This document shows, piece after piece, positions 12,788 to 53,530 of a stretch of DNA of 64,000 nt. A program made the translations under genes and the position numbers. The DNA is taken from assembly GCA_947643415.1 (NCBI GenBank), contig CANRWA010000011.1:19548-83547 (forward strand), read 5' to 3'. Within the stretch, counting starts at the first letter, position 1. The number at the start of each line of letters is the position of its first letter. Under the pieces are notes generated by a model. It was given only the letters and a program-made list of their open reading frames with translations. It was not told where the DNA came from and did not search any database. The DNA comes from an uncultured Clostridia bacterium (lineage in GTDB: Bacteria; Bacillota; Clostridia; Lachnospirales; Lachnospiraceae).

Positions 12788-12789
12788 AT

Positions 12790-18491: not shown

Positions 18492-18831
18492 AAAAAGTTT
18501 TTAATTTTTGTCCCAGTTCAGTCTTTTCAATCGTTATTATATATAGAGATAGAAATGTGGGGAGGTGAAAGAATGTGTGAGAGAGTACAATGGTATGATG
18601 GCATACAGAGGAAAAGACATAAAAAAGCGTTCTTTTCATATGGTTGTGATAGACCGAAAAAAGGTAGTTGCAAACCATAGTTCACTTACAAAAAGTAAAC
18701 TCCGTCTGACAGCGGGGGCAAGTAAAGCGACAGGTACAGGAATACTAACGAATGAGTTTTAGTAGTTTCGTTTTACAGGGAAATATTTTAAGGATATTTC
18801 CCTGTAAATAAAAATGTGTAGGAGGAGAAAT

Positions 18832-20595
18832 ATGTTTTTTCTGAAATGTAAGCAGTTTTTCAAATCCCCAGCCCTGGTTCTGGCAATTCTTCTCTATTTT
18901 ACCTGGATCATACAAAAACTATTACCTGGCATGATCTCCGAAAAGGGTGATGTCGCAAATTCAATGACATACCCTCTTGTTTTTATTCCTGTGTCTTTTG
19001 TGTTTTTTATATTTCTTTCATATGCATTTTTTTCTGGTGAGGAAAAAAGTAAGGTGGATGAAGTTATCTTGACATGTAGAAATGGTAAATTAAGAAGTTG
19101 TTTTTGCAATCTTTGCCTGATCTTTTCCTTCAATGTCTTTTTGCTGTTGTTATTCGTTTTGTATTTGGGACTGCAGTGTGCCAAGGCATTAGGATCTGTT
19201 CCGATGGATGTGATCTGGTTTGGGGTACGCTGTTATCTGATCCATATTATTTTGGTAAATATATTTGCTGCACTGGCCGGGATGGCAGTTTCTTTCATCA
19301 AAAACGAGATAAAGGCATTTGTCGTTATGATCGTTGTCTGCTGTTTTTTTAGCCAGTTTTTTCTGGAATCTCTATATAAGCTGTCAGGAAATAATCTGGA
19401 GCTGTGGCATATGATGGATCTTTTTGGGCTGACCACAAGAATGTATCATGCTGCAGCGGATTATGATTATATTTTTTCCATCGAAAGCGTTGACTTGCAG
19501 CGCATCCTGTTCTGGATTTTTGCGACAGCCACAATTCTGATCTGTTACTTAGCACCAGGAAGAAAGCGGTTTTTTACTATCTGCAGTGGAGTGATCATGG
19601 TGATACTTTTTGTGTTGTATATGCAGCCCAATGGTGCCAGCTATCTGAATGTGAATATGGTGTCGGATGCAAATGATGAAGAATATAACTATTATAATGC
19701 GCATACGGAGCAGATTGGCACGCTGGAACATTGCGAATCGGAGGAAAACTTTAAGATCACGAAATATGTGGCGGACATTCATGTAAACCGGATTTTAAGT
19801 GCTGATGTGGAAGTTTATATAGATCAGCAGGAACTGGATGCTTATGTGTTTTCCCTGCGCCATGAGTATGAAGTTATTTCTGTGGAAGACGAATATGGGA
19901 AAAAGGTTAGCTGTCGACAGGAGGGGGACTGGATTACGCTTCACCCAGAGGATTCCATGAAACACTCAAAATTTATTTTTCATTATCAGGGAGCTTCAAA
20001 GACATTTTATTCAACTTCTCAGGCGATCCGTCTGCCTGCCTATTTTGCGTATCTTCCCTTTTCCGGGAAAAGATATTTGTATCTGGAATTGGAACAAAAT
20101 TATGGAGAACAAGATACTTCTCTGATGTTGTATAACGGATCTGTACAGGAGGGACCTGGTTATAAGGCAGAATATGATATAGTGATTGACAGCAGTCTGA
20201 AAGTGTACAGTAATCTTAAGGAAACAGAAGCCAATCATTTTCATGGTATCAGTGATGGTGCTACCTTGATGGCGAATACTTTTTTAGAGGAAGAAGAGAT
20301 ATCCGGAGTAAGAGTGGTGCATTCAAAAGCAGATCCGGGATATTTCCCAAAAGTAGAACCGGATTACGATGCCAGAGAGGAGTGGAGAAGCTTTATCGCT
20401 GAAAATGGCCTGCAGGGAAAGACGATTTTTGCATTGGGGGTGGTACATGGACGGGAGGATAACTATAGATATTTTGGAGAAGATCATCTTGTGCTGATAT
20501 CCCCCTGTACAGAAAAGTACCAGACATATCTAAAAACCGGGAAGTATCCATATTTTGAGGATTTAACGGAGGAAAAGATGCTTCTGGGATTATGA
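18832..20595 (+). CDS. ABC exporter membrane component with extracellular C-terminal beta-rich domain (M1-aminopeptidase N-domain-like, no HExxH)
   Basis: About 7-8 N-terminal TM segments, then a soluble domain (ITKYVADIHVNRILSADVEVYI...FIFHYQG). Upstream of an ABC ATPase. GGAGG RBS for ATG 18832. Confidence 0.6.
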   Translation: MFFLKCKQFFKSPALVLAILLYFTWIIQKLLPGMISEKGDVANSMTYPLVFIPVSFVFFIFLSYAFFSGEEKSKVDEVILTCRNGKLRSCFCNLCLIFSFNVFLLLLFVLYLGLQCAKALGSVPMDVIWFGVRCYLIHIILVNIFAALAGMAVSFIKNEIKAFVVMIVVCCFFSQFFLESLYKLSGNNLELWHMMDLFGLTTRMYHAAADYDYIFSIESVDLQRILFWIFATATILICYLAPGRKRFFTICSGVIMVILFVLYMQPNGASYLNVNMVSDANDEEYNYYNAHTEQIGTLEHCESEENFKITKYVADIHVNRILSADVEVYIDQQELDAYVFSLRHEYEVISVEDEYGKKVSCRQEGDWITLHPEDSMKHSKFIFHYQGASKTFYSTSQAIRLPAYFAYLPFSGKRYLYLELEQNYGEQDTSLMLYNGSVQEGPGYKAEYDIVIDSSLKVYSNLKETEANHFHGISDGATLMANTFLEEEEISGVRVVHSKADPGYFPKVEPDYDAREEWRSFIAENGLQGKTIFALGVVHGREDNYRYFGEDHLVLISPCTEKYQTYLKTGKYPYFEDLTEEKMLLGL

Positions 20596-38489: not shown

Positions 38490-39377
38490 GTGGCAGAGAA
38501 AGATATTACAGAGAAGGTGCTGGAGTCATACAATGATGTATTTTCTGATATAGTAAATGTCCTTCTTTTTGAAGGAAAGGAAGTACTGGAACCGGATGGA
38601 CTGGAAGAGCAGGCACCACGTTCGTATTATAAGGCAGATGGCAGGGTGCATGAGATGGAGCGGGATGTGGTCAAGTGTTGGAGGTTGGGAAATATCCGGA
38701 TTGCATGTGTTGGAATAGAAAACCAGACCGGGGCTGACTTGGACATGACACTTCGTGTGATTGGTTATGACGGGGCAGAGTACAGAGCGCAGCTTTTGCC
38801 TGACAGCACAGCTAAGGCAAGATATCCTGTGATAACACTTGTTCTGTATTTTGGCTATGAACAGCACTGGAACAGACCAGTCCGGCTGCTGGAACGGCTG
38901 GAAGTACCAGAGATACTTATGCCATTTGTGAGTGATTACAGGATAAACCTCTTTGAGATTGCATATATGAGGGAAGAACAGGTGGAATTGTTTAAAAGTG
39001 ATTTTAGGATCGTTGCAGATTATTTTGTGCAGAAACGTAACTATGGAGATTATGATCCAGAACCGATGGAATTTACACATGTACAGGAGACGCTGCAGCT
39101 GCTCAGTGTAATGACTGGTGACCATAGATTTGAAGAGGCCTGTAATGATAACAGGGAAGGAGGTCCGCATAATATGTGTGAAGTATTGGACAGAATTGAG
39201 AATAGGGGAATTCAGCAGGGGATTGAACAAGGGATCCAGCAGGGAGAAAATGATTTTGCAGAACTGATGAGCAGCTTGTTTGCCCAGGGGAGGATTGAAG
39301 ACGCAAAGCGTGCCGCAGAAGACCGGGAATATCGGCATATACTTGCTGAGCAACTGTTTCAGACAAGGAAGATGTGA
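38490..39377 (+). CDS. Rpn family (recombination-promoting nuclease / putative transposase) PD-(D/E)XK protein
   Basis: D...VLES..DVFSDIVN start, ERDV...GIENQ catalytic pattern, RVIGYDGAEY, PVITLVLYFG, C-terminal QQGIEQGIQQG repeats. Confidence 0.88.
   Translation: MAEKDITEKVLESYNDVFSDIVNVLLFEGKEVLEPDGLEEQAPRSYYKADGRVHEMERDVVKCWRLGNIRIACVGIENQTGADLDMTLRVIGYDGAEYRAQLLPDSTAKARYPVITLVLYFGYEQHWNRPVRLLERLEVPEILMPFVSDYRINLFEIAYMREEQVELFKSDFRIVADYFVQKRNYGDYDPEPMEFTHVQETLQLLSVMTGDHRFEEACNDNREGGPHNMCEVLDRIENRGIQQGIEQGIQQGENDFAELMSSLFAQGRIEDAKRAAEDREYRHILAEQLFQTRKM
39174..39377 (+). CDS. Putative internally initiated small Rpn C-terminal protein (67 aa, RpnS-like)
   Basis: AAGGAGGT at 39157-39164 lies 9 nt before the in-frame ATG 39174 (MCEVLDRIENRGIQQG...). 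Confidence 0.55.
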   Translation: MCEVLDRIENRGIQQGIEQGIQQGENDFAELMSSLFAQGRIEDAKRAAEDREYRHILAEQLFQTRKM

Positions 39378-39387
39378 AGAACAAGTT

Positions 39388-39575
39388 AAACACCCCACAG
39401 CAAGCTGACGGGGCGTGAAGTTTGTCTTTCGCAGCAGAGCTGCGGGGTATTCGGTCTGTGCTCCGTTTCGGTCGTTGCTAAACAAACATCCGCTGGATGT
39501 TCAGCAACCCTTGCGGGCACGCTCGGATGGCGCAAGCAGGCTTGCCCATCCTCACTTTACCTACGCACAAATAAA
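39388..39575 (-). repeat. Structured non-coding element, copy A (125-bp core at 39442-39566, preceded by GC-rich hairpins)
   Basis: Core aligns without gaps to 53346-53470 (110/125). Multiple hairpins with compensatory changes. Lies between convergent genes. Confidence 0.85.
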
Positions 39576-39610
39576 TATGAAATTAATAAGACTGCAAAGG
39601 TGTCGAAAAA

Positions 39611-39720
39611 AGGGCTGCGGTTCTCAGCCAGCCCTTATTCTCTTATAGGAAAGTTCAGCATATGCGGAGCAAGAACGGCCAAAGGCCGTTCTTGGAGGGC
39701 TGCGGTTCTCAGCCAGCCCT
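39611..39720 (+). repeat. Modular intergenic repeat (family 2), 1.5 units
   Basis: AGGGCTGCGGTTCTCAGCCAGCCCT at 39611-39635 and 39696-39720; shared blocks are identical to 12790-12884. Confidence 0.82.
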
Positions 39721-40595
39721 TATTTCCAAGTCACGCTTTTCAGTAATGCTTCATACTCAGGAGACTCATATTGTCCAAAACCAAACTTAGACTGCCACTG
39801 GATAAAGTATGCTGTTTTCTTATATGTAATTATTGTTATCATGTTTTCAGATAGTTTTGAGTCTGATGTATATGAAAATTTCCATTGTTTTGCCTCTTTT
39901 CCTCCCACTTTAAGAGAGGACTGCATCTGGAGTTTGTAATCATCAAATAATTTGGAATAGATACTCCAGAGAAAATCCGTGGATTCATTTTGAATTTTTT
40001 GTGTATAGACAGAGATGGAATACAAGCTTTTCTTGTCATGGAAAATGCAAGGGATATTTTTTGTTTTACCATGTGTCCAGTCAGATGAAAATTGAAATTT
40101 CATCTTTTTCACCTGATAAGAATCTTTGGAATGTATCTTATGCTTTAGTTTGTCTGTGTTATAATCATACAGATCTATGCTTGATTCGAGCTCATCTGGA
40201 ACATAGTAGGGGATTTTTTTCTTATAATCATTTATGAGATAGACATCCCATTTCTGATTATCTGTATCATATTTTGCTGATATGTTAAGGAGCTTTCCGT
40301 CATTCATTTTTGTTCTGATTTCAATGTAAGTGCCATCCGATTCCTGCTTCATATTTTCATAGGTTGAGGATGCTATGGAACTGTTTGTCAGATCAGCAAG
40401 AGCATCTGTATAACATTGGATCAATTGTGGCTCGTTTGGAATGCTGCCAGTATGGACAGCATCAGGGGATGTAGTAATAATAGGATATGAGACAGGGGCG
40501 AAGGCAGGATCTGATTTGACATATTTTAGAATAAAGACTGCTGTGATGATACCTACTAGGACAGAAATTAAATCTATTTTCTTGCGAAAGTCCAT
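39720..40595 (-). CDS. Hypothetical membrane-anchored protein with a PsbP/DcrB-like C-terminal domain
   Basis: N-terminal TM helix. C-terminal LKVGGKEAKQWKFSY...AYFIQW...YEALLKSVTWK pattern. Visibly AT-rich; AGGAG RBS. Confidence 0.55.
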   Translation of the reverse strand: MDFRKKIDLISVLVGIITAVFILKYVKSDPAFAPVSYPIITTSPDAVHTGSIPNEPQLIQCYTDALADLTNSSIASSTYENMKQESDGTYIEIRTKMNDGKLLNISAKYDTDNQKWDVYLINDYKKKIPYYVPDELESSIDLYDYNTDKLKHKIHSKDSYQVKKMKFQFSSDWTHGKTKNIPCIFHDKKSLYSISVYTQKIQNESTDFLWSIYSKLFDDYKLQMQSSLKVGGKEAKQWKFSYTSDSKLSENMITIITYKKTAYFIQWQSKFGFGQYESPEYEALLKSVTWK

Positions 40596-40688
40596 AAAAA
40601 CTCCTTTCTAAAACAAAGCAGCGTTAAATTATCTGCTTGTTGTGGATACTTGCCTATAGTATAGACCATATACAAATAAATGTCAAAA

Positions 40689-40706
40689 AATGGCGCCGTT
40701 GGGCTA
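40689..40706 (+). repeat. Partial REP/MITE-end-like unit upstream of aroA
   Basis: AATGGCGCCGTTGGGCTA, 16/18 to ATTGGCGCCGTTGAGCTA. Confidence 0.5.
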
Positions 40707-40862
40707 TGAGAGCAACAGTACCTTGGGAATGTACGAAATAGTGTTATATCTGTCTGAGATGTCTGCTTGATAAAAGCAATTTCCTGTGATAAGATGAAAA
40801 TACAGTTTTTAAGCTTGATGGCGGGATTAAGTTGTCGCCGTCGGACTGGAAAGAGGTGAACT

Positions 40863-42218
40863 ATGAAGGAATTCCACATGAAACCATTTGCTGGCAGACC
40901 GGATATTCATGTCTGTGTGCCAGGATCTAAGAGTATTACGAACAGGGCACTGCTGATGGCAGCACTGGCAGAGGGAACCAGTGTACTGAGAGGGATTCTC
41001 TTCAGTGATGATTCTAGAGTGTTTATCGAGGCGCTTCAATCAATCGGATATGAGATCTCAGTGGATGAAGGGCGTGCGGAGGTGGTGATCCATGGCTGTG
41101 GCAGGAAAATCCCGAAAGACAAAGTATCTGTCTATGTGGGAAGTGCTGGGACAGCGGCACGTTTTCTGACGGCGATGCTTGCTCTGTCAGGGGGGGAGTA
41201 CGAACTGGCTTCATCAGAGCAGATGAAGACCCGCCCCATGCGTCCCTTGCTGGAAGCGTTGGAACAGATGGGAGTATTGTTTGAATACAAAGAAAAGCTA
41301 TACTCATTTCCCTTTCGGATTCTTGGCAGGGATATCCAGAAAAAAAATATTTACAATCAAGACCATCAGGCAGGTGCTCTCCAGAAAATTTATCTGAATA
41401 TAGATGAGAGCAGCCAGTTTCTCAGCGCACTTCTTTTATCTGGTGTGCTGTGTGAAAAAGGGTTTATTGTGGAACTGACAGGAAAGAGGGATGCCAGGGC
41501 ATATGTGAAGATCTCTATGAAGATGATGGAGGAGTTTGGCTGCCATATGGAGCAGGCGGGCGAGAATGAATATCATATTCTGCCAGGGCAGTCTTATCAG
41601 GGAAGGGAATACCAGATCGAACCCGATGTGTCGGCGGCATGTTATTTTTATGCCATGGCGGCGGTGAATCATGGTACTGCGCTGGTAGAGCATGTCCATT
41701 TTGACAGTACACAGGGGGATATCCGGTTTCTGCATATACTGGAAAAGATGGGATGCCGGCTGGAGGACACAAAAGAAGGGATCCGCCTGATGGCATCGGA
41801 AGCAGAAGGACTTCAGGGTGTTGATGTGGTAATGAGTGATTTCTCAGACCAGACCATGACACTGGCAGCGGTGAGCATCTTTGCAGAAGGAATGACGACG
41901 ATACGGGGAGTGGGACATATACGGAAGCAGGAGTCCGACCGGATTCATGCCATTGTGACGGAGCTGCGCCGTCTCGGTATTGCCTGTGAGGAGCATGAGG
42001 ATGGGCTGGTGATCCATCCGGGACAGGTCAAGTCCTCTTTTCAGGCACCCGTGATGATCCATACCTATGAAGACCACCGGATGGCGATGGCATTCGCTGT
42101 GGTTGGGACAAGGCAGGAGGGTATTGTGATCTGCGATCCTCTGTGCTGTCGCAAAACCTATGAAGACTATTTTCAGGTATTGACAAATCTGGGGTTACGT
42201 TTACAATTAGAAGAGTGA
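40863..42218 (+). CDS. aroA: 3-phosphoshikimate 1-carboxyvinyltransferase (EPSP synthase)
   Basis: PGSKSITNRALL, GSAGTAARF, RPMRPL, SSQFLSALL, KQESDRI, YEDHRMAMAF. Confidence 0.95.
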   Translation: MKEFHMKPFAGRPDIHVCVPGSKSITNRALLMAALAEGTSVLRGILFSDDSRVFIEALQSIGYEISVDEGRAEVVIHGCGRKIPKDKVSVYVGSAGTAARFLTAMLALSGGEYELASSEQMKTRPMRPLLEALEQMGVLFEYKEKLYSFPFRILGRDIQKKNIYNQDHQAGALQKIYLNIDESSQFLSALLLSGVLCEKGFIVELTGKRDARAYVKISMKMMEEFGCHMEQAGENEYHILPGQSYQGREYQIEPDVSAACYFYAMAAVNHGTALVEHVHFDSTQGDIRFLHILEKMGCRLEDTKEGIRLMASEAEGLQGVDVVMSDFSDQTMTLAAVSIFAEGMTTIRGVGHIRKQESDRIHAIVTELRRLGIACEEHEDGLVIHPGQVKSSFQAPVMIHTYEDHRMAMAFAVVGTRQEGIVICDPLCCRKTYEDYFQVLTNLGLRLQLEE

Positions 42219-42265
42219 AAGGCGAATAGAAACAGCATGATATTTCGTAATGGACGGAGGTTAGT

Positions 42266-44035
42266 ATGAAGAAGATCATAGATATACTGAAGGAAAAGGT
42301 GACAGAGGGATTTGTGAAAGCGGACTATGATGCAAAATACGGTTTTATCACCAACAGCAACCGCCCTGACCTGTGTCAGTACCAGTGCAATGGGGCTATG
42401 GCAGCGGCGAAGGAGTACAAGAAAGCGCCCATTGCGATCGCTGGCGATGTTGTTGCCGGATTGGCAGGGGATGGCCTGTTTGAAAAGATTGAGGCAGTGA
42501 ACCCTGGCTTTATCAATATTACAGTGAGTGGGGCGTTTCTTGCCACACAGGCAGAAAAAATGTGTACGGAGGAGTATTTTGGACTGGAACTGCCTGAGAC
42601 ACCAAAGACGATCGTTATTGATTATGGTGGTGCCAATGTGGCAAAGCCTCTTCATGTGGGACACTTGCGCTCGGCTGTTATCGGTGAGAGTATAAAGAGG
42701 ATCTGCCGTTATATGGGAAATCATGTGCTGGGGGATGTCCATCTTGGTGACTGGGGGCTGCAGATCGGGCTTATCATCACAGAGGTGAAGAAACGTCAGC
42801 CGGCACTTCCTTATTTTGATGACAGCTATGATGGTGAATACCCGTCAGAAGCACCATTTACCATCAGTGACCTGGAAGAGATCTATCCCTGTGCCAGCAG
42901 CTATTCTAAAGAGCATGAGGAGTATTTGGAAGAGGCACAGGAAGCTACTGCAAAGCTGCAGGAGGGGCATCGGGGATACCGTGCTCTGTGGCAGCATATA
43001 TTGAATGTGTCCATTGCTGATCTGAAGATGAATTATGGAAGGCTGAATGTGGAGTTTGACCTGTGGAAGAAGGAAAGTGATGCTGAGCCATATATCCCGG
43101 ATATGGTGAAGAAGCTGAAAGAGGATGGGTTTGCCTATATGAGTGAAGGGGCCCTGGTAGTCGATGTGACAGAAGAGAGTGATAAAAAGGAATTGCCGCC
43201 ATGTCTTATCGTCAAGTCCAATGGTGCCACCCTTTATGCCACAACGGATCTTGCTACCATTGTAGAAAGAGAGAAACTTTATCAGCCAGACCATATTATT
43301 TATCTGGCCGATAAGCGTCAGAGTATGCATTTTACCCAGGTATTCCGTACCGCAAAAAAGGCGGGGATCGCCAGAGAAGATGTCCGGCTTGATTTCATTG
43401 GTTTCGGTACCATGAATGGTAAGGACGGAAAACCTTTTAAGACAAGGGATGGCGGTGTACTGCGTCTGCAGGAACTGTGCCGGATGATCAATGAAGAGGT
43501 CTATCAGAAGATTAAGGATAACCGGGATTATAAAGAAGAAGAGGCACGGGAGATCGCAGAGAAAGTGGGGATTGCAGCACTTAAATACGGTGATCTGTCC
43601 AATCAGGCGTCGAAAGACTATATTTTTGATATTGAGAGATTTGCCTCTTTCGAGGGAAATACCGGGCCATATATTTTGTATACCATTGTGAGGATCAAGT
43701 CCCTGCTCAGTAAATATAAGGAAAATGGCGGTATTCCGGAGGAGACAGCAGAACTGCTGGCACCAGCCAGTGAGAGCGAGACAGATCTGTATCTTACATT
43801 GAATAAATATGCGGACACCATAGAAGGTGCCTATGCAGAACTGGCACCACACCGGATCTGCCAGTATGTCTATGAATTGTCAGAGGCATTTAACCATTTT
43901 TACCATGAGACGAGGATCCTGGCAGAAGAGGATGAGAAAAGAAGGGCTTCTTACCTGAAGCTGATCGGACTGGTTCAGCGTGTGCTGGAGCAATGCATTG
44001 ACCTGCTGGGATTTGAGGCACCAGAGAAGATGTGA
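42266..44035 (+). CDS. argS: Arginine--tRNA ligase
   Basis: NVAKPLHVGHLRS (HIGH), GDWGLQ, FEGNTGPYILY, C-terminal APEKM. Confidence 0.96.
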   Translation: MKKIIDILKEKVTEGFVKADYDAKYGFITNSNRPDLCQYQCNGAMAAAKEYKKAPIAIAGDVVAGLAGDGLFEKIEAVNPGFINITVSGAFLATQAEKMCTEEYFGLELPETPKTIVIDYGGANVAKPLHVGHLRSAVIGESIKRICRYMGNHVLGDVHLGDWGLQIGLIITEVKKRQPALPYFDDSYDGEYPSEAPFTISDLEEIYPCASSYSKEHEEYLEEAQEATAKLQEGHRGYRALWQHILNVSIADLKMNYGRLNVEFDLWKKESDAEPYIPDMVKKLKEDGFAYMSEGALVVDVTEESDKKELPPCLIVKSNGATLYATTDLATIVEREKLYQPDHIIYLADKRQSMHFTQVFRTAKKAGIAREDVRLDFIGFGTMNGKDGKPFKTRDGGVLRLQELCRMINEEVYQKIKDNRDYKEEEAREIAEKVGIAALKYGDLSNQASKDYIFDIERFASFEGNTGPYILYTIVRIKSLLSKYKENGGIPEETAELLAPASESETDLYLTLNKYADTIEGAYAELAPHRICQYVYELSEAFNHFYHETRILAEEDEKRRASYLKLIGLVQRVLEQCIDLLGFEAPEKM

Positions 44036-44083
44036 GGCAGCGGCAGTCCGTGTTTTAGCTAATATTGGAAAGGATGAGAGAAT

Positions 44084-45394
44084 ATGTATCGTGAAACAGC
44101 ACGTCTGATCATGTACAGCAGACTGGGAGAGGATAATATTTTGTTGAAACTGAGTGAGATCTTCGAGAGGACACAGAAATGTGAGGCCGTCAGCAGGGAA
44201 CCATTGGTGCGGGATGTGTATGACCAGGTTTACCGCATTCTTGACCTGTCTACCCGGTATGGTTTTGATGAGAATTTGTGGCAGTGTTACATTGCCTATC
44301 TGCTGGCGACCAATGAGAATCCTTTCAGTATCATATGTGAGACAGTGGGGGCATCGGCAGATGCCACAGTGAATACCATCGTAAAACAGGATATGGATTG
44401 TTTTTATCGGTTGTTTCACTATGATTTTTCAGAGGTACAGGGTTCCCTTGGCGTGGACTGCTTTGATATCCTGACCCATTATCATTCCATGGCAAAGGCA
44501 GAAAATACCTACAATAGGAGTGTCAGTGAGAAAGTGCGTGCATTGGCGGGAAAGCTCCGTGAGGCAGAAGATGGCGCTGGCTTTTTTGATATTGTGACAG
44601 CGTTTTATAAACAGTATGGTGTTGGCAAATTTGGGCTGAATAAGGCATTTCGTGTGATACATAAGGGAGAGGATGCCATCCTCTCACCCATCACCCACAC
44701 AAGCGATGTCACACTGGACCATCTCATTGGCTACGAACTGCAGAAAAAGCAGCTGATTGAAAATACAGAGGCATTTGTGGAGGGGAGAAAGGCGAATAAC
44801 TGCCTCCTTTACGGAGACAGTGGAACCGGTAAATCCACCTGCATCAAGGCAATACTGAATCAATATTATGACAGGGGGCTGCGTCTGATCGAGATCTATA
44901 AGCATCAGTTCAAAGACCTGTCGAATATAATAGAACAGGTAAAGAACCGGAACTATAGATTTATCATATATATGGATGACCTTTCTTTTGAGGAATTTGA
45001 GATAGAATATAAATATCTGAAAGCGGTCATCGAAGGCGGTATGGAGGTGAGACCGGACAATGTGCTGATCTATGCCACATCAAACCGGCGCCATCTGATC
45101 CGGGAGACATGGAGTGACCGCTCAGATATGTCGCAGGATGAACTGCACCGCTCAGATACGATGCAGGAAAAACTGTCATTGGTGGCACGCTTTGGCGTGA
45201 GTATCAATTTCAGCCGGCCACAGAAAAAGGGATTTGATGAGATCGTTCTGGGACTGGCAGAGAATGAGCCAGAGATCACACTGGGGGCTGAGGAACTTCT
45301 TATGAAAGCAAATGCCTGGAGCCTTCGGAATGGAGGGTATTCCGGACGGGTGGCAGAGCAATTTATCACATATCTGAAATCCATAGCAAAATAG
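44084..45394 (+). CDS. DUF815-type AAA+ ATPase
   Basis: ANNCLLYGDSGTGKST, FIIYMDDLSFE, YKYLKAVIEGG, YATSNRRHLI, SGRVAEQF. Confidence 0.85.
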   Translation: MYRETARLIMYSRLGEDNILLKLSEIFERTQKCEAVSREPLVRDVYDQVYRILDLSTRYGFDENLWQCYIAYLLATNENPFSIICETVGASADATVNTIVKQDMDCFYRLFHYDFSEVQGSLGVDCFDILTHYHSMAKAENTYNRSVSEKVRALAGKLREAEDGAGFFDIVTAFYKQYGVGKFGLNKAFRVIHKGEDAILSPITHTSDVTLDHLIGYELQKKQLIENTEAFVEGRKANNCLLYGDSGTGKSTCIKAILNQYYDRGLRLIEIYKHQFKDLSNIIEQVKNRNYRFIIYMDDLSFEEFEIEYKYLKAVIEGGMEVRPDNVLIYATSNRRHLIRETWSDRSDMSQDELHRSDTMQEKLSLVARFGVSINFSRPQKKGFDEIVLGLAENEPEITLGAEELLMKANAWSLRNGGYSGRVAEQFITYLKSIAK

Positions 45395-45409
45395 TGAATG
45401 GAGATTTTT

Positions 45410-45970
45410 ATGTTTGAACGTTTTTTTCCGGATCATACAGTATCCTCTACTTATGAGATTGATTATGAAAAGCTATACCAGCAGGGATACCGGGGAGTGC
45501 TCTTCGATATTGACAATACACTGGTGGAACATGGAAACGCAGCAGATGCGCGAGCGAAGAAATTATTTGCCCGGTTGAGGGAAATTGGGTTTGAGTGCTG
45601 CCTGATCTCCAACAATAAGATGAAACGAGTTTACCGGTTCAATGAGAACATCGGGGTCCATATGGTCTTTAATGCACATAAACCAGGGAAAAAGGGGTAT
45701 TATTATGCCATGGACCTGATGAATACAAGACCAGAAAATACGGTATTTGTGGGCGATCAGCTTTTTACAGATATTTTTGGAGCGAAGCGGATCGGGCTGA
45801 AAAATTATCTTGTCAAGCCCATCAATGCCCGCGAAGAGTTTCAGATCATATTGAAACGCCAGTTGGAACGGGTTGTTCTCAGGGAATACCGGCTGAAAAA
45901 GAGGGTAGAGAAGAGGAAGAGAAGATGGAAAAGGGAATTGCAGAAAAGATACTCCAGGATGCGCCAGTAG
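45410..45970 (+). CDS. yqeG: YqeG family HAD IIIA phosphatase
   Basis: FDIDNTL, ISNN, HKP, VGDQLFTDIFGA. Confidence 0.9.
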   Translation: MFERFFPDHTVSSTYEIDYEKLYQQGYRGVLFDIDNTLVEHGNAADARAKKLFARLREIGFECCLISNNKMKRVYRFNENIGVHMVFNAHKPGKKGYYYAMDLMNTRPENTVFVGDQLFTDIFGAKRIGLKNYLVKPINAREEFQIILKRQLERVVLREYRLKKRVEKRKRRWKRELQKRYSRMRQ

Positions 45971-47004
45971 AGGGCATTTTGCTGACAGATCCGGCAAATA
46001 TGCGTTATGTTGCCGGATTTACAGGGGAGGGTTATGTATATCTGTCCGGGAACCATATGCTGGTAGTGACAGATTCCCGCTACACGGTGGCCGCCGCATC
46101 AGAATGTCCGGGGTATCAGGTGGTAAAATGGAGTCAGGATGGTTATTATGAACCATTGATAAAAGCGTTGAAAAAGGATGGCATACGGACTCTGGGAATT
46201 GAGGATGAGGAGATGACCGTTGCCGGATTAGACAGATTGTGCGGGGAGATCAAAGAGGCGGGTGTGAAAGAACTGGAGACAGAGCCATTAAAGGATTATG
46301 TGACAGCGTACCGCGCCGTGAAAACCACCGCAGAGATTGCACGGATTAAGGAAGCGGAGGCTATTGGTGACCGTGCTTTTGCCAGGATTCTTCCTAAACT
46401 TGGTACTGGCATGTCAGAGAAACAGGTCGCTGCATGGCTTGAATTCCTGATGAAGGAAGAGGGGGCAGAGGGATTCAGTTTTGATACCATTGCCGCATCT
46501 GGCATCCATTCGGCGATGCCTCATGCAGTTCCCACAGACAGAAAGCTGACAGAGGGAGATTTTCTCACTATGGATTTTGGCTGCAGGTATCGGGGATATT
46601 GTTCTGATATGACGCGTACCGTCGTTATAGGGCAGGCATCCGAACGGCAGAGGGAGATCTATCACACGGTTCTCCGTGCGCAGCAGGCAGCACTGGAGGG
46701 GATGCGTCCGGGCATGACAGGGAAAGAGATTGATGCCCTGGCGAGGGATGTGATCAGGGAGGCAGGATATGGCGACTATTTTGGACATTCGTTGGGACAT
46801 TCAGTAGGGCTTGAGATTCATGAAAGGCCTGTCTTTTCAACAAAGGAGGAGACTGTGATCCGGCCGGGAATGGTGATCACGGTTGAACCGGGAATCTATA
46901 TTGAAGATTTCGGCGGCGTGAGGATCGAGGATGTTGTGGTGATAACAGAGGATGGCTGTGAGAATATCACGTATTCACCGAAAGAATTGAATGAGATCAT
47001 TTAG
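45925..47004 (+). CDS. Xaa-Pro aminopeptidase (M24B)
   Basis: SAMPH, MDFG...YCSDMTRT, FGHSLGHSVGLEIHE, EPGIY...GGVRIED. Confidence 0.92.
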   Translation: MEKGIAEKILQDAPVEGILLTDPANMRYVAGFTGEGYVYLSGNHMLVVTDSRYTVAAASECPGYQVVKWSQDGYYEPLIKALKKDGIRTLGIEDEEMTVAGLDRLCGEIKEAGVKELETEPLKDYVTAYRAVKTTAEIARIKEAEAIGDRAFARILPKLGTGMSEKQVAAWLEFLMKEEGAEGFSFDTIAASGIHSAMPHAVPTDRKLTEGDFLTMDFGCRYRGYCSDMTRTVVIGQASERQREIYHTVLRAQQAALEGMRPGMTGKEIDALARDVIREAGYGDYFGHSLGHSVGLEIHERPVFSTKEETVIRPGMVITVEPGIYIEDFGGVRIEDVVVITEDGCENITYSPKELNEII

Positions 47005-47020
47005 GAGGAACGGGAGAAGT

Positions 47021-48232
47021 ATGAGACCAAAGATATGTGTGCCGATTGTGGCGTCTTTGCGGGACCAGATCGTGAGAGAGGCAAGAGAGGTATCCCGGCT
47101 GCCAGTACAGATGGCAGAGTGGCGCGTTGATTATTATGCTGGTTATGAAAGAGAGCTGCCTGGCATAGTAGAAGAATTAAAGAATGTGCTGGGTGATAAG
47201 GAACTGATCGTGACTCTGCGCACGGAACAGGAGGGAGGCGAACCGAACGGCTCCCGTTTTGATTATTTTGGTATGTTGGAGGAAGTGCTGGGACAGGGCA
47301 GGGCAGATTATATTGATGCCGAGATCAGCCGGGATCCGGAACGATTGACAGCACTATGCCGGAAATACAAAGAAAACCCCACGGGGATCATCGGATCATA
47401 CCATGATTTTCATAAGACCCCCTCTAAGGAATTCATTGTACAGATGGTGGAAAAGGCAAAACAGTGCGGCTGTGCCATCGGTAAATTTGCCTGTATGCCT
47501 TTGGTGCCCGAAGATGTAGATACGCTCCTGGCGGCAACATCGGAGTGTAAGGAGAGAGAACCGGAGTTTCCTGTTATCACTATGTCTATGGGGGAAATGG
47601 GAGTGGATTCGCGTCTTTATGGCGGGCTGTATGGCTCAGAGGTTTCTTTTGGATGTGCAGGACAGGCATCGGCGCCGGGACAGGTTTCCTATGAAAGAAT
47701 GACAGAAGTCTTTGACAAGATCTATGTAAATGGGAAGCATATCTTTCTCATTGGGTTTATGGGGACTGGCAAATCTACTGTTTCCAAAGAGCTGCAGTAC
47801 CGTTCCGGTAAACCGGAGATTGATACCGATGCCTGGATCGAGGAACAGGAGGGGCGCAGCATAAAGGAGATCTTTGAGACAGAAGGGGAAGGATATTTTC
47901 GCCAGAGGGAGACTGCCATGCTGGATGAACTTGGTGTGATGAGGCCGTCTGTAATTTCCTGCGGAGGAGGCATGGCGCTGCGTGGCCTGAATGTCAGGAA
48001 GATGAAAGCGCTGGGAAAGGTGGTTCTTCTGACGGCGGCGCCAGAGACGGTCTATGAACGGGTAAAGGCAAGCGACAACCGGCCCCTTTTGCGGAATCAC
48101 ATGAATGTGGATTACATAAAGGGGCTGATGGAGAAACGCATGCCTTTTTATGAACGGGCAGCGGATATAAGTATTGTGACAGATAACAGGATGATATGTG
48201 ATATCGCAAAGGAGATATTGGAAAGGGTATAG
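47021..48232 (+). CDS. aroD: Fusion: type I 3-dehydroquinate dehydratase + shikimate kinase
   Basis: N-terminal half: EWRVD, TLRTEQEGG, SYHDF, GKFACMP, ITMSMG, APGQ. C-terminal half: IGFMGTGKST, FRQRE, ISCGGG, RPLL (AroK). Confidence 0.9.
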   Translation: MRPKICVPIVASLRDQIVREAREVSRLPVQMAEWRVDYYAGYERELPGIVEELKNVLGDKELIVTLRTEQEGGEPNGSRFDYFGMLEEVLGQGRADYIDAEISRDPERLTALCRKYKENPTGIIGSYHDFHKTPSKEFIVQMVEKAKQCGCAIGKFACMPLVPEDVDTLLAATSECKEREPEFPVITMSMGEMGVDSRLYGGLYGSEVSFGCAGQASAPGQVSYERMTEVFDKIYVNGKHIFLIGFMGTGKSTVSKELQYRSGKPEIDTDAWIEEQEGRSIKEIFETEGEGYFRQRETAMLDELGVMRPSVISCGGGMALRGLNVRKMKALGKVVLLTAAPETVYERVKASDNRPLLRNHMNVDYIKGLMEKRMPFYERAADISIVTDNRMICDIAKEILERV

Positions 48233-48239
48233 GGAATTT

Positions 48240-49799
48240 ATGGGTTTTGAAAGTATATTATATGCTGATACAGGGCAGGAGACGGTTAAGTCAGAGCCTG
48301 TTTATTTTCAGGATCTCCGGCTGGATTATCTGATGGGGATACTGGAGCGTCCAGTGAAGGAGTATGCAGTGCAGCAGCATTACTATACACTACCGGCGAC
48401 AGCAGGTCTGATCCATTACCGCCATGAGGTTTTCAAGGACTTGTCTGTGCCGGCATTATATGAGGGGATAAAGCGGTTTTGCCTGAAGATGCAGAGGGCC
48501 CGCCGTGCCAGTGGTCTTGCCAGTGAGAGCCAGGAGGCAGTTCAGGCAGCAAGTTATCATCTGGAGGCTGCTGCTTTTTATTGGGAAGGGCTGCTTGCGT
48601 TTTGTCAGGAGCTATCCGATTGTGAGTTGGTATCTCAGGGAATGCGTTCTCTGAGAGAGTATCTGGAGAAGCACATGTCGAAGCTTCAGCAGGAGGGATT
48701 TGAAGAGGCGCTGAATCGTGCCCGTGAATTTTTCTCAAAGATCCGTTTCCGGCTTATTGTAGGGGATGAGCATATAACCGTGGAGGAGCTGACAGAGGAG
48801 CCGGACTGGACAGAAACGGAAGGAGAATCGGTCTGGGAGAGGAATTATATGAAGGAGCTGGCAGAGCTTCTGAAATTGGAGACAGATGGGGAAAAGGACT
48901 ATATGGAGGGCATTTTTCCCAATGTTCTGGAACCCTCATATCTGGAACTGACCATGATCCAGATCCTGCGGAAGAACAATCCGGAGATTTTCAGGGAGAT
49001 CCGGGAATTTCATCAGAGATTTCCGGAATTCTATTCCGATAAAATATTGAGATTTGAAGAGGAAGTACAATTCTATATCAGCTTTATGGAATTTAAGAAA
49101 AATACAGAGAAACTGGGGTATTCCCTGCAGGAACCATGCTTGTCACAGGATGGCCGGTTTTCTGGTACAGGGGTGTATGACCTCGCTCTTGTATGGGTAA
49201 ATGCAGGCAGGGATTATATGGTAGTCGCCAATGACTTCTGTTTTCCTGAGAAACCTTCTTTCTTTGTGGTCACAGGACCAAACCAGGGTGGTAAGACTAC
49301 ATTTGCCCGTTCTGTGGCACAGGCATTGTATTTTGCCATGATGGGACTGTATGTCAATGCGGATACTTTTCTTTTTCCATGGTTTGATGGGATATCTACC
49401 CACTTTGAGATGGAAGAGAAGCTGCAGTCGAATTCAGGTAAATTAAAGGATGAGATAGACCGTCTGGCGCCTATGATGCACCAGAATAAGAAACGCCACT
49501 TTATTGTACTGAATGAGCTGTTTACCACAGCAACAACCCATGATGCCCTGATTATGGGCAAGAAGGTGATGAAGTATTTTCTCATGAGGGAGTGTTATGG
49601 AATCTATGTCACACATATACAGGAACTGGCTGAAGAGACAGATACTATCATCAGCCTGGTGGCACAGATCGAGCAAGGGGAAGAGGACAGGCGGACGTAC
49701 CGTATGCTGCCTATGGCAGCCCAGGGATATGGGTATTCGGATTCCCTGGTAAAGCGGTTTGAGCTGCGTTATGAAGATCTGATAAGGAGGCTGACATAA
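48240..49799 (+). CDS. MutS-related protein (ATPase domain V, lacks mismatch-binding domain), paralog A
   Basis: VTGPNQGGKTT, THFEMEE...G.LKDE, IVLNELFTTAT, YVTH. Confidence 0.85.
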   Translation: MGFESILYADTGQETVKSEPVYFQDLRLDYLMGILERPVKEYAVQQHYYTLPATAGLIHYRHEVFKDLSVPALYEGIKRFCLKMQRARRASGLASESQEAVQAASYHLEAAAFYWEGLLAFCQELSDCELVSQGMRSLREYLEKHMSKLQQEGFEEALNRAREFFSKIRFRLIVGDEHITVEELTEEPDWTETEGESVWERNYMKELAELLKLETDGEKDYMEGIFPNVLEPSYLELTMIQILRKNNPEIFREIREFHQRFPEFYSDKILRFEEEVQFYISFMEFKKNTEKLGYSLQEPCLSQDGRFSGTGVYDLALVWVNAGRDYMVVANDFCFPEKPSFFVVTGPNQGGKTTFARSVAQALYFAMMGLYVNADTFLFPWFDGISTHFEMEEKLQSNSGKLKDEIDRLAPMMHQNKKRHFIVLNELFTTATTHDALIMGKKVMKYFLMRECYGIYVTHIQELAEETDTIISLVAQIEQGEEDRRTYRMLPMAAQGYGYSDSLVKRFELRYEDLIRRLT

Positions 49800-51349
49800 T
49801 GGATTCTTGTTTGCTGTATCGTGATTCCTCGACCGATGGGAGGAAAGGGTATTATTCAAGACGTGATATTACCAAGGACTTTAATCTGGATATCCTGTTT
49901 CGGACTATGGCAAGAGAAGATGTCCTTATATTGGAGAAAGTCCGCAAGGTTGTTATGATCCCGCTTACAGAACCAGAGGAAATTCTGTATCGGCAGGAAA
50001 TCCTGCAGGAACTGTATCATTTCGGTTATCTGGCAAAGGGAATGTACGAATGTGCGCTGCGCCAGGAGAAGGCACTGCAGAAGTACAAAGAAGAGAAGGA
50101 ACGTTTTTACAGCCGGTCCACAAGGAAGATCGGGGAGGTTCTGGAGACGCTTGCCTATCTGACACAGGGACAGGAGGAACTTATTGGCCTGCAGAAGATG
50201 TTGGAAGAATATGCTGACAGGATGCAGTCAGAGGGATTGAAAAATCTTCTGGCGAGGTTAAGGGCACAGCCATTGGAGGAGATTGGAACAAAGCTGAAAG
50301 AAATGGAGTTCTTTGTATCAGGTGGCGAGATCGGGTGTACAGTGCAGTTCGGTGGTGGTATGAAGATGGACCAGGTTCGGGTGAACTACTGTGACAGTAA
50401 AAAAAGGCGGGGAGCGCAGTCTACAGTGCGGGGCCTGCAGAAGTTTTATAATAAATTTGTCAAAAAGAATACGATTCCCATTAATTCCAATGTCGTTTTG
50501 CGGGAAGAGGTGGAGCATCTGAAAGAATTTTCAGTGGAACATATGCTGAAGATGTTCCGCCCTTATCTGGGAAGGATGCTGGCCTTCTTTGAACACTTTA
50601 TTGAAGAAATTGCATTTTATATGGGCGTGATCCAGTTTATGAAGCGTATGAAAGAGATTGGAATACCTCTGACAATGCCTGTTCCGGGTCCGGCTGGTTC
50701 AAGGGATACTGCTTTTGAGAATCTCTTCGAGTTGTCTATGGCGGTCTATATGCAGTATATGCCAGTGGGAAATGACCTTGTGATGCATGACAATATTCTG
50801 ACTCTGGTCACTGGGGCAAATCAGGGCGGTAAGTCAACATTCCTGCGAAGTTATGGAATTGCCCAGTTATTGATGCAATGTGGGATGCCGGTTCCGGCAG
50901 CGAGCTTCCGTGCCCCGGTCTACGGGCAGATATTTACTCATTTCACAAGGCGGGAGAGTGAGAAGATGGACAGCGGCCGCCTTCAGGAAGAACTGAAGCG
51001 AATGAGTGATATGGTCAGTGCTGCAGGGCCAGACAGCCTTTTTCTTCTGAATGAATCTTTTGCCAGTACAACAGAGAAAGAGGGGGCACGTATCGCAGAG
51101 GCGATTCTCCGTGCTTTTTATGAGAAAGGGATCACTACGATGATGGTTACACATCTGTATCAGCTTGCCAGTGAATTGTATGGGAAGAGGCTGTCAGGTA
51201 CTACATTTCTGGCAGCAGAGAGACAGGAGGATGGCACCAGAACCTATAAGATGGTACCAGGTGCGCCGAGTCATACAAGTTATGGGACAGATCTGTTTCA
51301 GGTGCTGGAGGACGAGCTGACAGACAGTACAAAACCGCAGTTCAGCTAG
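49799..51349 (+). CDS. MutS-related protein, paralog B
   Basis: VTGANQGGKST, QLLMQCG, SGRLQEEL, LLNESFAST, MVTH. Start overlaps the stop of paralog A (TAATG). Confidence 0.85.
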   Translation: MDSCLLYRDSSTDGRKGYYSRRDITKDFNLDILFRTMAREDVLILEKVRKVVMIPLTEPEEILYRQEILQELYHFGYLAKGMYECALRQEKALQKYKEEKERFYSRSTRKIGEVLETLAYLTQGQEELIGLQKMLEEYADRMQSEGLKNLLARLRAQPLEEIGTKLKEMEFFVSGGEIGCTVQFGGGMKMDQVRVNYCDSKKRRGAQSTVRGLQKFYNKFVKKNTIPINSNVVLREEVEHLKEFSVEHMLKMFRPYLGRMLAFFEHFIEEIAFYMGVIQFMKRMKEIGIPLTMPVPGPAGSRDTAFENLFELSMAVYMQYMPVGNDLVMHDNILTLVTGANQGGKSTFLRSYGIAQLLMQCGMPVPAASFRAPVYGQIFTHFTRRESEKMDSGRLQEELKRMSDMVSAAGPDSLFLLNESFASTTEKEGARIAEAILRAFYEKGITTMMVTHLYQLASELYGKRLSGTTFLAAERQEDGTRTYKMVPGAPSHTSYGTDLFQVLEDELTDSTKPQFS

Positions 51350-51377
51350 AATAACGGCACAGTTAAAAAATTTTTAC

Positions 51378-51406
51378 TTGAAATATGCCAGTAAATATAA
51401 TAAAAT
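51378..51406 (+). promoter_or_regulatory. Sigma-A promoter of efp
   Basis: TTGAAA-N17-TAAAAT. Confidence 0.55.
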
Positions 51407-51464
51407 AGAAAAAGATATGTACATGAACCCATTATATGGGAAACATAAGGAGGAACAGTAGAAA

Positions 51465-52022
51465 ATGGTATCAGCAGGAGAGTTTAGAAACGGTCTTACC
51501 GTGGAGATTGATGGAACCGTTTATCAGATTGTAGAGTTTCAGCATGTAAAACCGGGAAAAGGTGCAGCTTTTGTGCGTACTAAGCTGAAAAATGTTGTGG
51601 ATGGCGGCGTGGTAGAGACGACATTCCGGCCTAATGAGAAATATCCACAGGCACATATTGATAAAAAAGAAATGCAGTATCTGTACAATGATGGTGAGAT
51701 GTACAATTTCATGGATAACGAGACATATGAGCAGATTGCCCTGACTCAGGAGGCAGTGGGAGATGCCATGAAGTTTGTAAAGGAAAATGACAATGTAAAG
51801 ATGGTTTCCTATAAGGGCAATATCTTTGCCATTGAACCACCTATGTTTGCAGAGCTTGAGGTGATTGAGACAGAACCAGGCGTGAAAGGTGATACAGCTA
51901 CGAATGTGACAAAGCCGGCTACTGTAGAGACAGGTGCACAGGTTGCAGTACCGATCTTTGTAAATCAGGGAGACCGGATTCAGATCGATACCCGTACTGG
52001 TGACTATCTGAAGAGACTGTAA
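51465..52022 (+). CDS. efp: Elongation factor P
   Basis: [44 protein letters not shown]. Confidence 0.97.
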
Positions 52023-52043
52023 TATAGAATTAGGAGTTGACGG

Positions 52044-52080
52044 ACGGCACTGCCTTCTATGATGGCAGTGCCGTTTCTTT
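52044..52080 (+). terminator. Rho-independent terminator after efp
   Basis: ACGGCACTGCC-N9-GGCAGTGCCGT then TTCTTT. Confidence 0.85.
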
Positions 52081-52121
52081 AAGAAACTGGCAATTAATTT
52101 AAGTTAAGGAGAAAATGCAGA

Positions 52122-52817
52122 ATGCCTCTGACACAGAAAATGGACATAATTGCCCATGTGCACAGTGATTTTCGTGATAAATTCGGTATTCCAAGGCAGA
52201 GCAGCCTGGTGCCGGAGTTGGAGTCTGTCCTTATCTTTGAACCAGAATACCGAAATATGGATGCTCTGAGGGGACTGGATCAGTTTTCCCATATTTGGCT
52301 GATATGGCAGTTTTCAGAGAGTGTCAGGGAAGGGTGGTCACCAACAGTGCGGCCGCCGCGGCTTGGGGGAAATGAGCGGCTTGGTGTGTTTGCTACCCGT
52401 TCGCCTTTTCGTCCTAATGAGATCGGATTATCTTCCGTGCAGTTGCGATATATTGAAGATACGAAGAATATGGGTCCTGTCATTCATGTGGCAGGTGCAG
52501 ACCTGATGGATGGGACGCCTGTCTTTGATATTAAACCATATCTTCCTTATGTGGACAGCCATCCAGAGGCAGATGGCGGATTTACAGAGAATTACAGGGA
52601 ATATCATCTGCAGGTTGATTTTCCGGAAGAGTTGATGGAAAGAGTTCCAGACAGCAAGAGAAAGGCATTGTGTGGCGTGTTGGCAGGAGATCCAAGACCA
52701 GCGTACCAGCAGGATCCAGATCGGATCTATGGCATGAATTTTGCAGGGTATGAGGTAAAATTCAGGGTAATGGCAGATGTATTGATAGTATTGGATGTGC
52801 AGACAGGAGAAAGATGA
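52122..52817 (+). CDS. tsaA: tRNA-Thr(GGU) m6t6A37 methyltransferase TsaA/TrmO
   Basis: KFGIPRQS, TVRPPRLGGN...GVFATRSPFRPN.IGLS, DLMDGTPVFDIKPY, DPRPAYQ. Confidence 0.92.
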   Translation: MPLTQKMDIIAHVHSDFRDKFGIPRQSSLVPELESVLIFEPEYRNMDALRGLDQFSHIWLIWQFSESVREGWSPTVRPPRLGGNERLGVFATRSPFRPNEIGLSSVQLRYIEDTKNMGPVIHVAGADLMDGTPVFDIKPYLPYVDSHPEADGGFTENYREYHLQVDFPEELMERVPDSKRKALCGVLAGDPRPAYQQDPDRIYGMNFAGYEVKFRVMADVLIVLDVQTGER

Positions 52818-53317
52818 GTATGGAGTATGAGAATCTGCAGCATGAGTTTCCGCCTGTGTGGGATGAGAGTTCGGAGATATTGATATTGGGCAGTTTTCCT
52901 TCTGTAAAGTCCAGAGAGGATGGTTTTTTCTACGGACATCCAAGAAACCGGTTCTGGGATGTGCTCTCTGCCATAACGGGATCCTTAAGGCCAGTTACCA
53001 TAGAGGAGAAAAAGGATATGTTGATTTCTGCCCATATTGCAATATGGGATGTGATCGCCCGCTGCCAGATCAGGGGATCCAGTGACAGCAGCATCCGGAA
53101 TGTGGTTCCCAATGATATTTCGGGGATTCTTGCGAATGCTCCTATCCAGAAGATATTTGCGAATGGAAGGACGGCGGGAAAGTTGTATGAAAAATATATT
53201 TATCCGGATACTCAGATACCAATCACAGTATTGCCTTCTACCAGTCCGGCAAATGCTGCATGGACAAGAGAAAGGCTTATTGAGATTTACAGGGAAAATA
53301 TTATTATTCCTGCTTAG
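52814..53317 (+). CDS. DNA-deoxyinosine (hypoxanthine) glycosylase, UDG family 6
   Basis: LILGSFPSVKS...FYGHPRNRFW, WDVI..C...GSSDS, LPSTSPANA. Confidence 0.88.
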   Translation: MSMEYENLQHEFPPVWDESSEILILGSFPSVKSREDGFFYGHPRNRFWDVLSAITGSLRPVTIEEKKDMLISAHIAIWDVIARCQIRGSSDSSIRNVVPNDISGILANAPIQKIFANGRTAGKLYEKYIYPDTQIPITVLPSTSPANAAWTRERLIEIYRENIIIPA

Positions 53318-53321
53318 CTAA

Positions 53322-53480
53322 AGTCAAATACCCCGCCCCAGAGGGGCGGGGTATTTGGTCTACGCTCCGCTTCGGTCGTTGCTAAACGAACATCCGCTGG
53401 ATGTTCAGCAACCCTTGCGGGCGTGCTCGGATGATGCAAGCTTGCCTGCACATCCTCACTTTGCCTTCGCGGGAATAAAA
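53322..53480 (-). repeat. Structured non-coding element, copy B (14-bp GC hairpin + 125-bp core at 53346-53470)
   Basis: AAATACCCCGCCCC-aga-GGGGCGGGGTATTT, then a core 110/125 identical to 39442-39566. Lies between convergent genes. Confidence 0.85.
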
Positions 53481-53530
53481 ATGGATAACAGTGATCTGTT
53501 ATCCATTTTTTATGTAAGCAATAATTATAG

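Follow-up and report, generated by a model that had tools for sequence, protein, structure and literature searches.

Two copies, A and B, of a short intergenic element in a 64,000-nucleotide stretch of DNA from an uncultured Clostridia bacterium of the Lachnospiraceae (GenBank assembly GCA_947643415.1, contig CANRWA010000011.1, positions 19,548 to 83,547; "the window" below) are probably members of a small, non-autonomous, hairpin-rich family of patchwork interspersed repeats that is carried by some gut Lachnospiraceae. Its members have conserved ends around a modular middle, adjoin terminators, preserve their hairpins and occupy sites that are empty in relatives. The family is new and its kind is already known from other bacteria: with its terminator-like hairpin the repeat appears to be of the same kind as SPRITE, bcr1 and BOX, with which we compare it by described properties and not by sequence.

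A repeat search of the window returned positions 39430-39579 and 53334-53483 as a two-copy direct repeat with 85% identity and no gaps, and a 24-mer from its core occurs exactly twice in the window, against 0 occurrences expected. An initial annotation, made from the letters of the window alone, had described two 125-nt copies (39442-39566 and 53346-53470) with 15 differences and no gaps, and we reproduce that count exactly (11 transitions and 4 transversions). The double compensatory swap that it reported can be read directly in both copies, since positions 17-18 are GT in A and AC in B while positions 78-79 are AC in A and GT in B. The GGATG..CATCC hairpin on the right, said to be internally changed but still paired, is exactly that: it takes up 6 of the 15 differences and yet forms about 11 base pairs on the minus strand in each copy. 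In hairpin 2 (hp2) two adjacent pairs are exchanged on either side (CGCAGC-AGA-GCTGCG in A, CGCCCC-AGA-GGGGCG in B). The proposed extent needed revision; both copies are real, but the homologous element is longer than 125 nt (about 39383-39577 for A and 53321-53476 for B), and the GC-rich terminal hairpin of copy B, a perfect stem as described, has 15 base pairs rather than 14. The limits of copy B come from a profile match at 53332-53481, with the left end at 53321 (AAGTCAAAT) set by reading the sequence and the right limit at 53476 or 53481.

The differences between the copies were compared with those in random mutants of A or B that carried matched numbers of transitions and transversions (n=300). 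The mutants had folding energies of -39 +/- 5 kcal/mol, as against -49 to -52 kcal/mol for the observed copies; they were thus about 10 kcal/mol weaker, and only 3-7 of the 300 were as stable as the copies themselves. The minimum free energy (MFE) structures of A and B on the plus strand are separated by a base-pair distance of 7, and none of the 300 mutants came that close. The A/B differences therefore spare folding far beyond what random mutants do, and the observation is real and not a matter of chance. Within the window species, hairpin 1 (hp1) of copy A reads ACACCCC..GGGGCGT in the window and ATACCCC..GGGGCAT in other strains, so that a C-G pair is exchanged for a T-A pair, which is a compensatory change inside one species. 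A T-A versus C-G difference also distinguishes hp1 of the short copy L018a from that of L015, and the inner hairpin is present in all relatives, with a compensated variant in the degenerate relative L016b. The hairpins of the repeat family are preserved through compensatory substitutions, and the claim that the element is structured, with compensatory base changes, is upheld by the mutation test and by the hp1 change within the species.

What is conserved is a set of single hairpins and not one overall fold. The core had been drawn as a four-way junction, and this we reject. It demands that C39508 and G39517 be paired in two helices simultaneously, and by explicit energy evaluation it is 8-14 kcal/mol less stable than the MFE structure, a single long, rod-like imperfect hairpin that retains the compensated GTGC/GCAC pairs and in which CCGY pairs with GCGG. 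Moreover, the two window copies alone have the CCC-GCAA-GGG hairpin and the closing helix's 3' strand, and the relatives have other sequence at the junction region or lack the whole region. A long-range helix between TCTCCGC of the left core and GCGGGAA of the right end was no better than in shuffled controls.

Searches for relatives gave a family with recognizable ends (Table 1). A metagenome scan with one word from the core found at least 7 true loci and 1 chance match, and strain look-ups through neighboring proteins added more; metagenome contigs of other Lachnospiraceae contributed 8 relatives beyond the window copies. The elements measure 115-240 nt and have a GC content of 51-56%. Their common left end consists of AAGTCAAAT, hp1, the linker AGCTTCTCT, hp2 and then TATTnGGTCTCCGCT(CCG)CTTCGGTCGTTGC, with one or two GC hairpins, and their common right end of about 20 nt reads TTGC(C/T)T(A)CGCGGGAATAAA (..TTGCCTACGCGGGAATAAA). 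Between these ends the element is modular, and interchangeable hairpin modules vary from copy to copy. A hairpin TAAACGAACATCC-nnn-GGATGTTCAGCAAC is common to the window copies and the L014 type, the sequences diverging beyond it, and a third type, in L029, has no core hairpin. In the short allele ...GGTCGTTGC is joined directly to TTACGCGAGAATAAA; the long forms are therefore the short form plus a block of about 107 nt flanked by a TCGTTGC direct repeat, and they have a similar AAGGAAC..GTTCCTT hairpin in both halves. The family is non-coding, because alleles differ by a 5-nt indel and forms by the module of about 107 nt. A coding reading was dropped, as open reading frames across the element are on different strands in A and B and the indels are not multiples of three.

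No named family can be assigned to the element, just as the initial annotation had said. Rfam 15 gave no match in the whole window at the gathering score, and only noise on both window copies at E<=10 and on the L029 relatives at E<=1; no family was found on the copies or their relatives. A scan of a genome collection with TGTTCAGCAACCCTTGCGGG gave only 4 chance matches of 21-24 nt with a 20-mer that was poorly aimed, as it included a hairpin specific to the window copies, and scans of viral contigs and blastn searches against plasmids and phages gave no match. A covariance model run over 309 kb found nothing new, and nhmmer profiles together with that model found no extra or remote copies in all the sequence collected. 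The window organism's closest relatives have no copy in about 160 kb of sequence, nor is there one in a further 116 kb around homologues of the Rpn-like gene next to copy A.

The copies occupy unrelated intergenic contexts, and three comparisons of orthologous sites contrast a filled with an empty state. The gene order around copy B, trmO-UDG facing PocR/MCP, is kept in relatives with a UDG identity of 74-81%, and copy B is missing from the UDG/MCP spacer of L019, L022 and L028, which is 51-73 nt long and consists of nothing more than an A-run, a hairpin and a T-run. In L022 AAAAAACGGATAACAG..CTGCTATCCGTTTTT stands directly at the UDG stop codon with no element, and its hairpin GGATAACAG..CTGCTATCC is closely like the GGATAACAG..CTGTTATCC hairpin to the right of copy B (within 53477-53511); copy B is therefore bounded by the UDG stop codon (53315-53317) on one side and, on the other, by an older bidirectional terminator, where it lies at the edge of the A-run. 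In the second comparison strain L034, with a 100% identical ADH protein, lacks the long copy that L029 carries at 8343-8581; the empty site reads TAAAT-TATT-AAAGC and the filled one TAAAT-element-AAAGC. In the third, L036, a sister species with an ADH identity of 87%, lacks the short copy and has the terminator alone in its spacer. Copy B and the short copy of L029 (L018a), read in minus orientation, both follow the TTTTT of the upstream gene's terminator without a gap. Copy A begins 6 nt past the stop codon (39375-39377) of a YhgA/Rpn-like gene, ends about 30 nt ahead of the terminator of a minus-strand gene of 291 amino acids, and is kept in 10 of 10 strain contigs of the window species. Gene context bears out that both A and B lie between convergent genes; across the family 4 copies are convergent, 3 tandem and 1 divergent, and one fragment of the right part lies directly upstream of a gene. 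Three short-read contigs that carry the UDG gene from the same strain as the window (L005-L007) stop 29-40 nt inside copy B, as would be expected of an assembly broken by a repeat.

The minus strand is mildly favored. In the local hairpins 10 mismatches are A.C on the plus strand (G.U on the minus strand) as against 2 that are G.T on the plus strand, although these cases are partly non-independent. In 5 of 6 copies the minus strand has the lower MFE and in 7 of 9 the more negative z-score, hp1 in L029 was scored as an intrinsic terminator solely in minus orientation, and tandem flanking genes (at L014, at the short copy in L018/L029 and at L016) run along the element's minus orientation; the terminal hairpin of copy B was scored terminator-like on both strands. 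The minus strand had been put forward as the likely functional one, and wobble asymmetry, energies and the terminator-like hairpin do lean that way, modestly and short of proof. The GCAA (GNRA) tetraloop, reported only on the minus strand, is there as described, in a hairpin that is restricted to the window copies.

In size, in being non-coding and in its presence or absence between related genomes (the three comparisons above), the family is like a classical MITE (a miniature transposable element with inverted repeats). Several observations weigh against an interspersed repeat that moves. There are no terminal inverted repeats, the left end AAGTCAAATnCCCC being unrelated to the reverse complement of the right end (TTTATTCCCGCG), and the repeat search of the window reported no inverted pair. 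There is no clear target-site duplication; the flanks are A-rich, and L014 has AAAATAC (7 nt) on both sides, the others only AAA or TAAA. No transposase is consistently near the copies. Apparent copy number, 4 copies in 21 kb of L029 and 2 in the 64 kb of the window, is known from fragments only. The preference for one strand is modest, and three further plus-strand wobbles occur in other hairpins (Ha of L014 and of L015, and hp1 of allele b37). Finally, the flanks of the L029/L034 site are locally diverged, so the difference between these strains could stem from recombination rather than transposition; the mobile element that the initial annotation had offered as one option fits the filled and empty orthologous sites, with one strain pair that recombination could also explain. 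Comparison of L029 8100-8800 with L034 8300-8800 shows many differences for about 100 nt on each side of the site and near identity further out, which suggests an imported recombination tract.

Candidates for a partner gene were also considered. The end profiles found no match beside the DDE transposase of L029 or elsewhere in 675 kb, and so no parent insertion sequence (IS) element with the same ends. The gene upstream of copy A (38490-39377, plus strand, 295 amino acids) has a weak YhgA/Rpn-like "Transposase_31" match (E 4e-5), sits between transketolase genes and copy A, and has thousands of homologues in gut metagenomes; a link to it was rejected, as the 69-70% identical homologues examined lack the element and other copies have no such gene nearby. 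A TnpB or transposase gene beside the L016 relatives was likewise rejected, the neighbors being an LD-carboxypeptidase-like gene and other ordinary genes. The two copies are not the template and variable repeats of a diversity-generating retroelement, as their differences include C>T, G>A and T>C and there is no reverse transcriptase gene in the flanks.

SPRITE of pneumococci is about 105 nt long with 28% GC and is essentially one hairpin, a long duplex of about 18 bp with a U-rich tract behind it; it lies near gene 3' ends, with the strongest enrichment between convergent genes, has no matching IS element, is lineage-restricted, and target duplication is not established for it (PMC3049150). 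The Lachnospiraceae family is also a small non-coding repeat with a long duplex, a U-rich tract and placement between convergent genes or at gene 3' ends, and this terminator layout is seen in copy B, where the 15-bp duplex is followed by UAUUUGACUUU, and in L029, where hp1 was scored as a terminator. Like SPRITE, it is confined to one lineage, with neither a matching IS element nor an established target duplication. It differs, by description and not by sequence comparison, in its host, its GC content and length and in having several hairpins and swappable modules. This set of properties also matches RUP of pneumococci (PMC3049150). The bcr1 repeat of the Bacillus cereus group (Okstad 2004; Klevan 2007) is about 155 bp long, occurs in many copies per genome at positions that are not conserved between related strains, is transcribed, and has a multi-stem structure kept by compensatory changes; it is flanked by a 5-bp direct repeat and has no classical long inverted repeats and no known transposase (PMC3184786). 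Our family shares with it a Firmicutes host, a similar size, unfixed positions, compensatory changes and the lack of long inverted repeats and of a known transposase, whereas its flanks are merely A-rich and its apparent copy number, from fragments only, is low. BOX of S. pneumoniae has conserved end modules and a middle module that may be absent or multiplied, is co-transcribed with its neighbors, and has terminal inverted repeats, target duplications and tandem module repeats (PMC3049150). The modular build with conserved ends and an optional middle, and the predicted stem-loops, are alike in the two; in the Lachnospiraceae family, however, the modules are different hairpins and not tandem copies, and terminal inverted repeats are absent.

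If the copies are interspersed repeats of this sort, they would have spread as DNA, via an enzyme acting in trans or through recombination, and would persist downstream of genes, where the harm they do may be small. There they could be transcribed passively, on the window's minus strand, when transcription of the upstream gene reads through; the terminal hairpin (a GC stem and then AUUUGACUU) might then act as an extra Rho-independent terminator on that strand and the other hairpins as 3' untranslated region (UTR) structure. Pairing would be kept because the single-stranded form matters, be it RNA or a transposition strand. A bolder version, to which we give only a small chance, is that of a strand-specific mobile element that targets terminators, its conserved minus-strand hairpins serving as substrate for an enzyme that has yet to be connected with elements of this sort; it would be a mobile regulatory cassette, and not a passive parasite, that delivers a ready-made terminator or insulator to gene 3' ends.

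REP/REPIN and PATE elements are mobilized by RAYT or IS200/IS605 Y1 transposases. They resemble the Lachnospiraceae family in being hairpin-based and strand-specific, in having no long inverted repeats and in often lying beside terminators; the family differs in that it lacks a conserved GTAG/CGTC-type tag, that neither a RAYT nor a TnpA gene was seen close by, and that its apparent copy number is far lower. The copies might accordingly be read as a PATE- or REPIN-like non-autonomous transposon of the IS200/IS605 single-stranded DNA type, in which a Y1 transposase from elsewhere reads subterminal hairpins on one strand and inserts the element beside T-runs or beside hairpins like those of terminators. 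This would suit the lack of terminal inverted repeats and of a clear duplication, the hairpins of the left end and the AAGGAAC..GTTCCTT hairpin in each half of the long forms, the strand-asymmetric tolerance of G.T pairs, the single orientation of all four L029 copies and of both window copies, and the two insertions directly after a terminator TTTTT. We nevertheless think it rather improbable: the Pfam listings of the loci fetched contain no Y1 transposase or TnpB, only a DDE_Tnp_1 gene and the weak Transposase_31 match, the short forms and the window copies do not have the same hairpin at their left and right ends, and no conserved tetra- or pentanucleotide target can be defined.

The candidate structured RNA of the initial annotation would make the copies an independent small RNA (sRNA) gene of the minus strand whose product works in trans or is a ribozyme, with the multi-stem fold as the functional unit. 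Compensatory change in the hairpins, the G.U asymmetry with its lower minus-strand energy, the terminator-like hairpin at the minus-strand 3' end and the GNRA loop read from the sequence on that strand alone are all consistent with such a gene, but it is unlikely on several grounds. No sigma-70-like promoter was found upstream of A or B on either strand, and in B and L018a there is no room for one, the 5' edge being in contact with the T-run of the terminator before it. The fold is not conserved, as in relatives whole modules are absent or substituted, among them the GNRA hairpin and half of the closing helix, and the four-way junction lies well above the MFE structure. A terminator is present, and a promoter is not found and the element is missing at the syntenic (orthologous) sites of close relatives; nor does any ribozyme or sRNA family of Rfam match. 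A DNA-level recombination site or a remnant of segmental duplication, such as att-like repeats around the 13.9-kb block between the copies, is suggested by a pair of direct repeats that share their orientation and are separated by 13,904 bp, and is very unlikely, as the block (aroA, argS, DUF815, HAD, M24 peptidase, aroD/K, two MutS2 genes, efp, trmO and UDG) is syntenic in element-free relatives, there is no integrase or recombinase, the copies are 12-15% diverged with compensatory changes, and the relatives are single and in unrelated contexts; the conserved synteny also contradicts a genomic island, a reading that was dropped.

Table 1. Positions of the repeat copies, their parts and the related elements (window coordinates unless a contig is named; ".", both strands)
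Feature	Position	Strand	Basis or remark
Copy A, full (family member winA)	39383..39577	-	nhmmer family profile match and sequence reading
Copy A hp1, degenerate, ACACCCC ... GGGGCGT	39390..39416	-	by-eye comparison with L015 hp1; Lend profile match 39383-39455; homologous to the AAGTCAAATnCCCC..GGGGCATGACTT hairpin of relatives
Copy A hp2, CGCAGC-AGA-GCTGCG	39430..39444	-	read from sequence and folding
Copy A core, long imperfect palindrome	39458..39520	-	GTGC/GCAC (compensated), GTTGCT/AGCAAC, inner hairpin
Copy A inner hairpin, AACATCC-GCT-GGATGTT	39485-39501	-	within core
Copy A right hairpin, GGATGG..CCATCC	39525..39551	-	folding
Copy A right end, CCTACGCACAAATAAATA, diverged form of the family's right end	39560..39577	-	Rend profile match 39532-39579
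Copy B, full (family member winB), AAGTCAAAT ... CGCGGGAAT	53321..53476	-	profile match and sequence reading
Copy B terminal hairpin, 15 perfect bp, hp1 and hp2 fused	53325..53357	-	followed by UAUUUGACUUU on the minus strand
Copy B core, imperfect palindrome	53362..53424	-	ACGC/GCGT, GTTGCT/AGCAAC, inner hairpin 53389-53405
Copy B right hairpin, GGATG..CATCC	53429..53455	-	folding; 11 bp including one G.U on minus
Copy B right end, CCTTCGCGGGAAT, conserved family end	53464..53476	-	profile and alignment
Older bidirectional terminator: A-run, GGATAACAG..CTGTTATCC, T-run	53477..53511	.	outside the element; marks the insertion point
Members L014 and L015			
Long and short copy, 1.2 kb apart, in L018/L029			
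Third type	L029 17589-17759		
Right-end fragment	L029 18930-19002	-	
Core-only relative in L016; degenerate one, L016b			

Pneumococci, the B. cereus group, Neisseria and enterobacteria are known to carry small interspersed repeats, and a search of the literature returned none described for gut Lachnospiraceae, which are abundant and mostly uncultured. A repeat that lands beside terminators with a terminator-like hairpin of its own can alter the 3'-UTR structure and the read-through of neighboring genes, can break short-read assemblies, as with the three strain contigs that end inside copy B, and can pass for a structured RNA gene in comparative screens because its hairpins are under selection. 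With defined ends, swappable modules and filled and empty sites at the level of strains, this one offers a compact test case for the movement of repeats that have neither inverted ends nor a known transposase.

The host of the L018/L029 copies is a mouse-gut Lachnospiraceae metagenome-assembled genome, and the names of its UDG homologues likewise place the window organism in the Lachnospiraceae. The right-end fragment of L029 (Table 1) lies immediately upstream of a DUF5050 gene (17885-18907, minus strand), no more than about 15 nt from the ribosome-binding site (RBS); the same gene has a complete element just downstream, and the DDE_Tnp_1 transposase gene is about 550 nt further on.

The window holds other repeats as well. 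A second small family, with no Rfam match, occurs at 12757-12890 and 39606-39725 (plus strand) and consists of a GC hairpin, a T-rich stretch, CTTATAGGAAAG, about 14 nt, GCGGAGCAAGAA-hairpin-TTCTTGGA, GGGCTGCGGTTCTCAGCCAGCCC and a T-run. Its 85-nt unit at 39612-39696 is missing in L047 and L052, which have a single hairpin, and is present in 5 other strain contigs that span the site. At about 11230-11254 of contig L049 the second GGGCTGCGGTTCTCAGCCAGCCC hairpin is followed by thiC (RBS and ATG about 20 nt on) and not by the 291-amino-acid gene; either this is a further copy of the second repeat upstream of thiC, or the contig is chimeric through that repeat. Positions 27166-28461 of the window are made up of three blocks of 69-nt tandem repeats, with at least 13 units of 60-80% identity, which presumably encode a 23-residue repeat in the gene of a large surface protein or one of the leucine-rich repeat (LRR) type.

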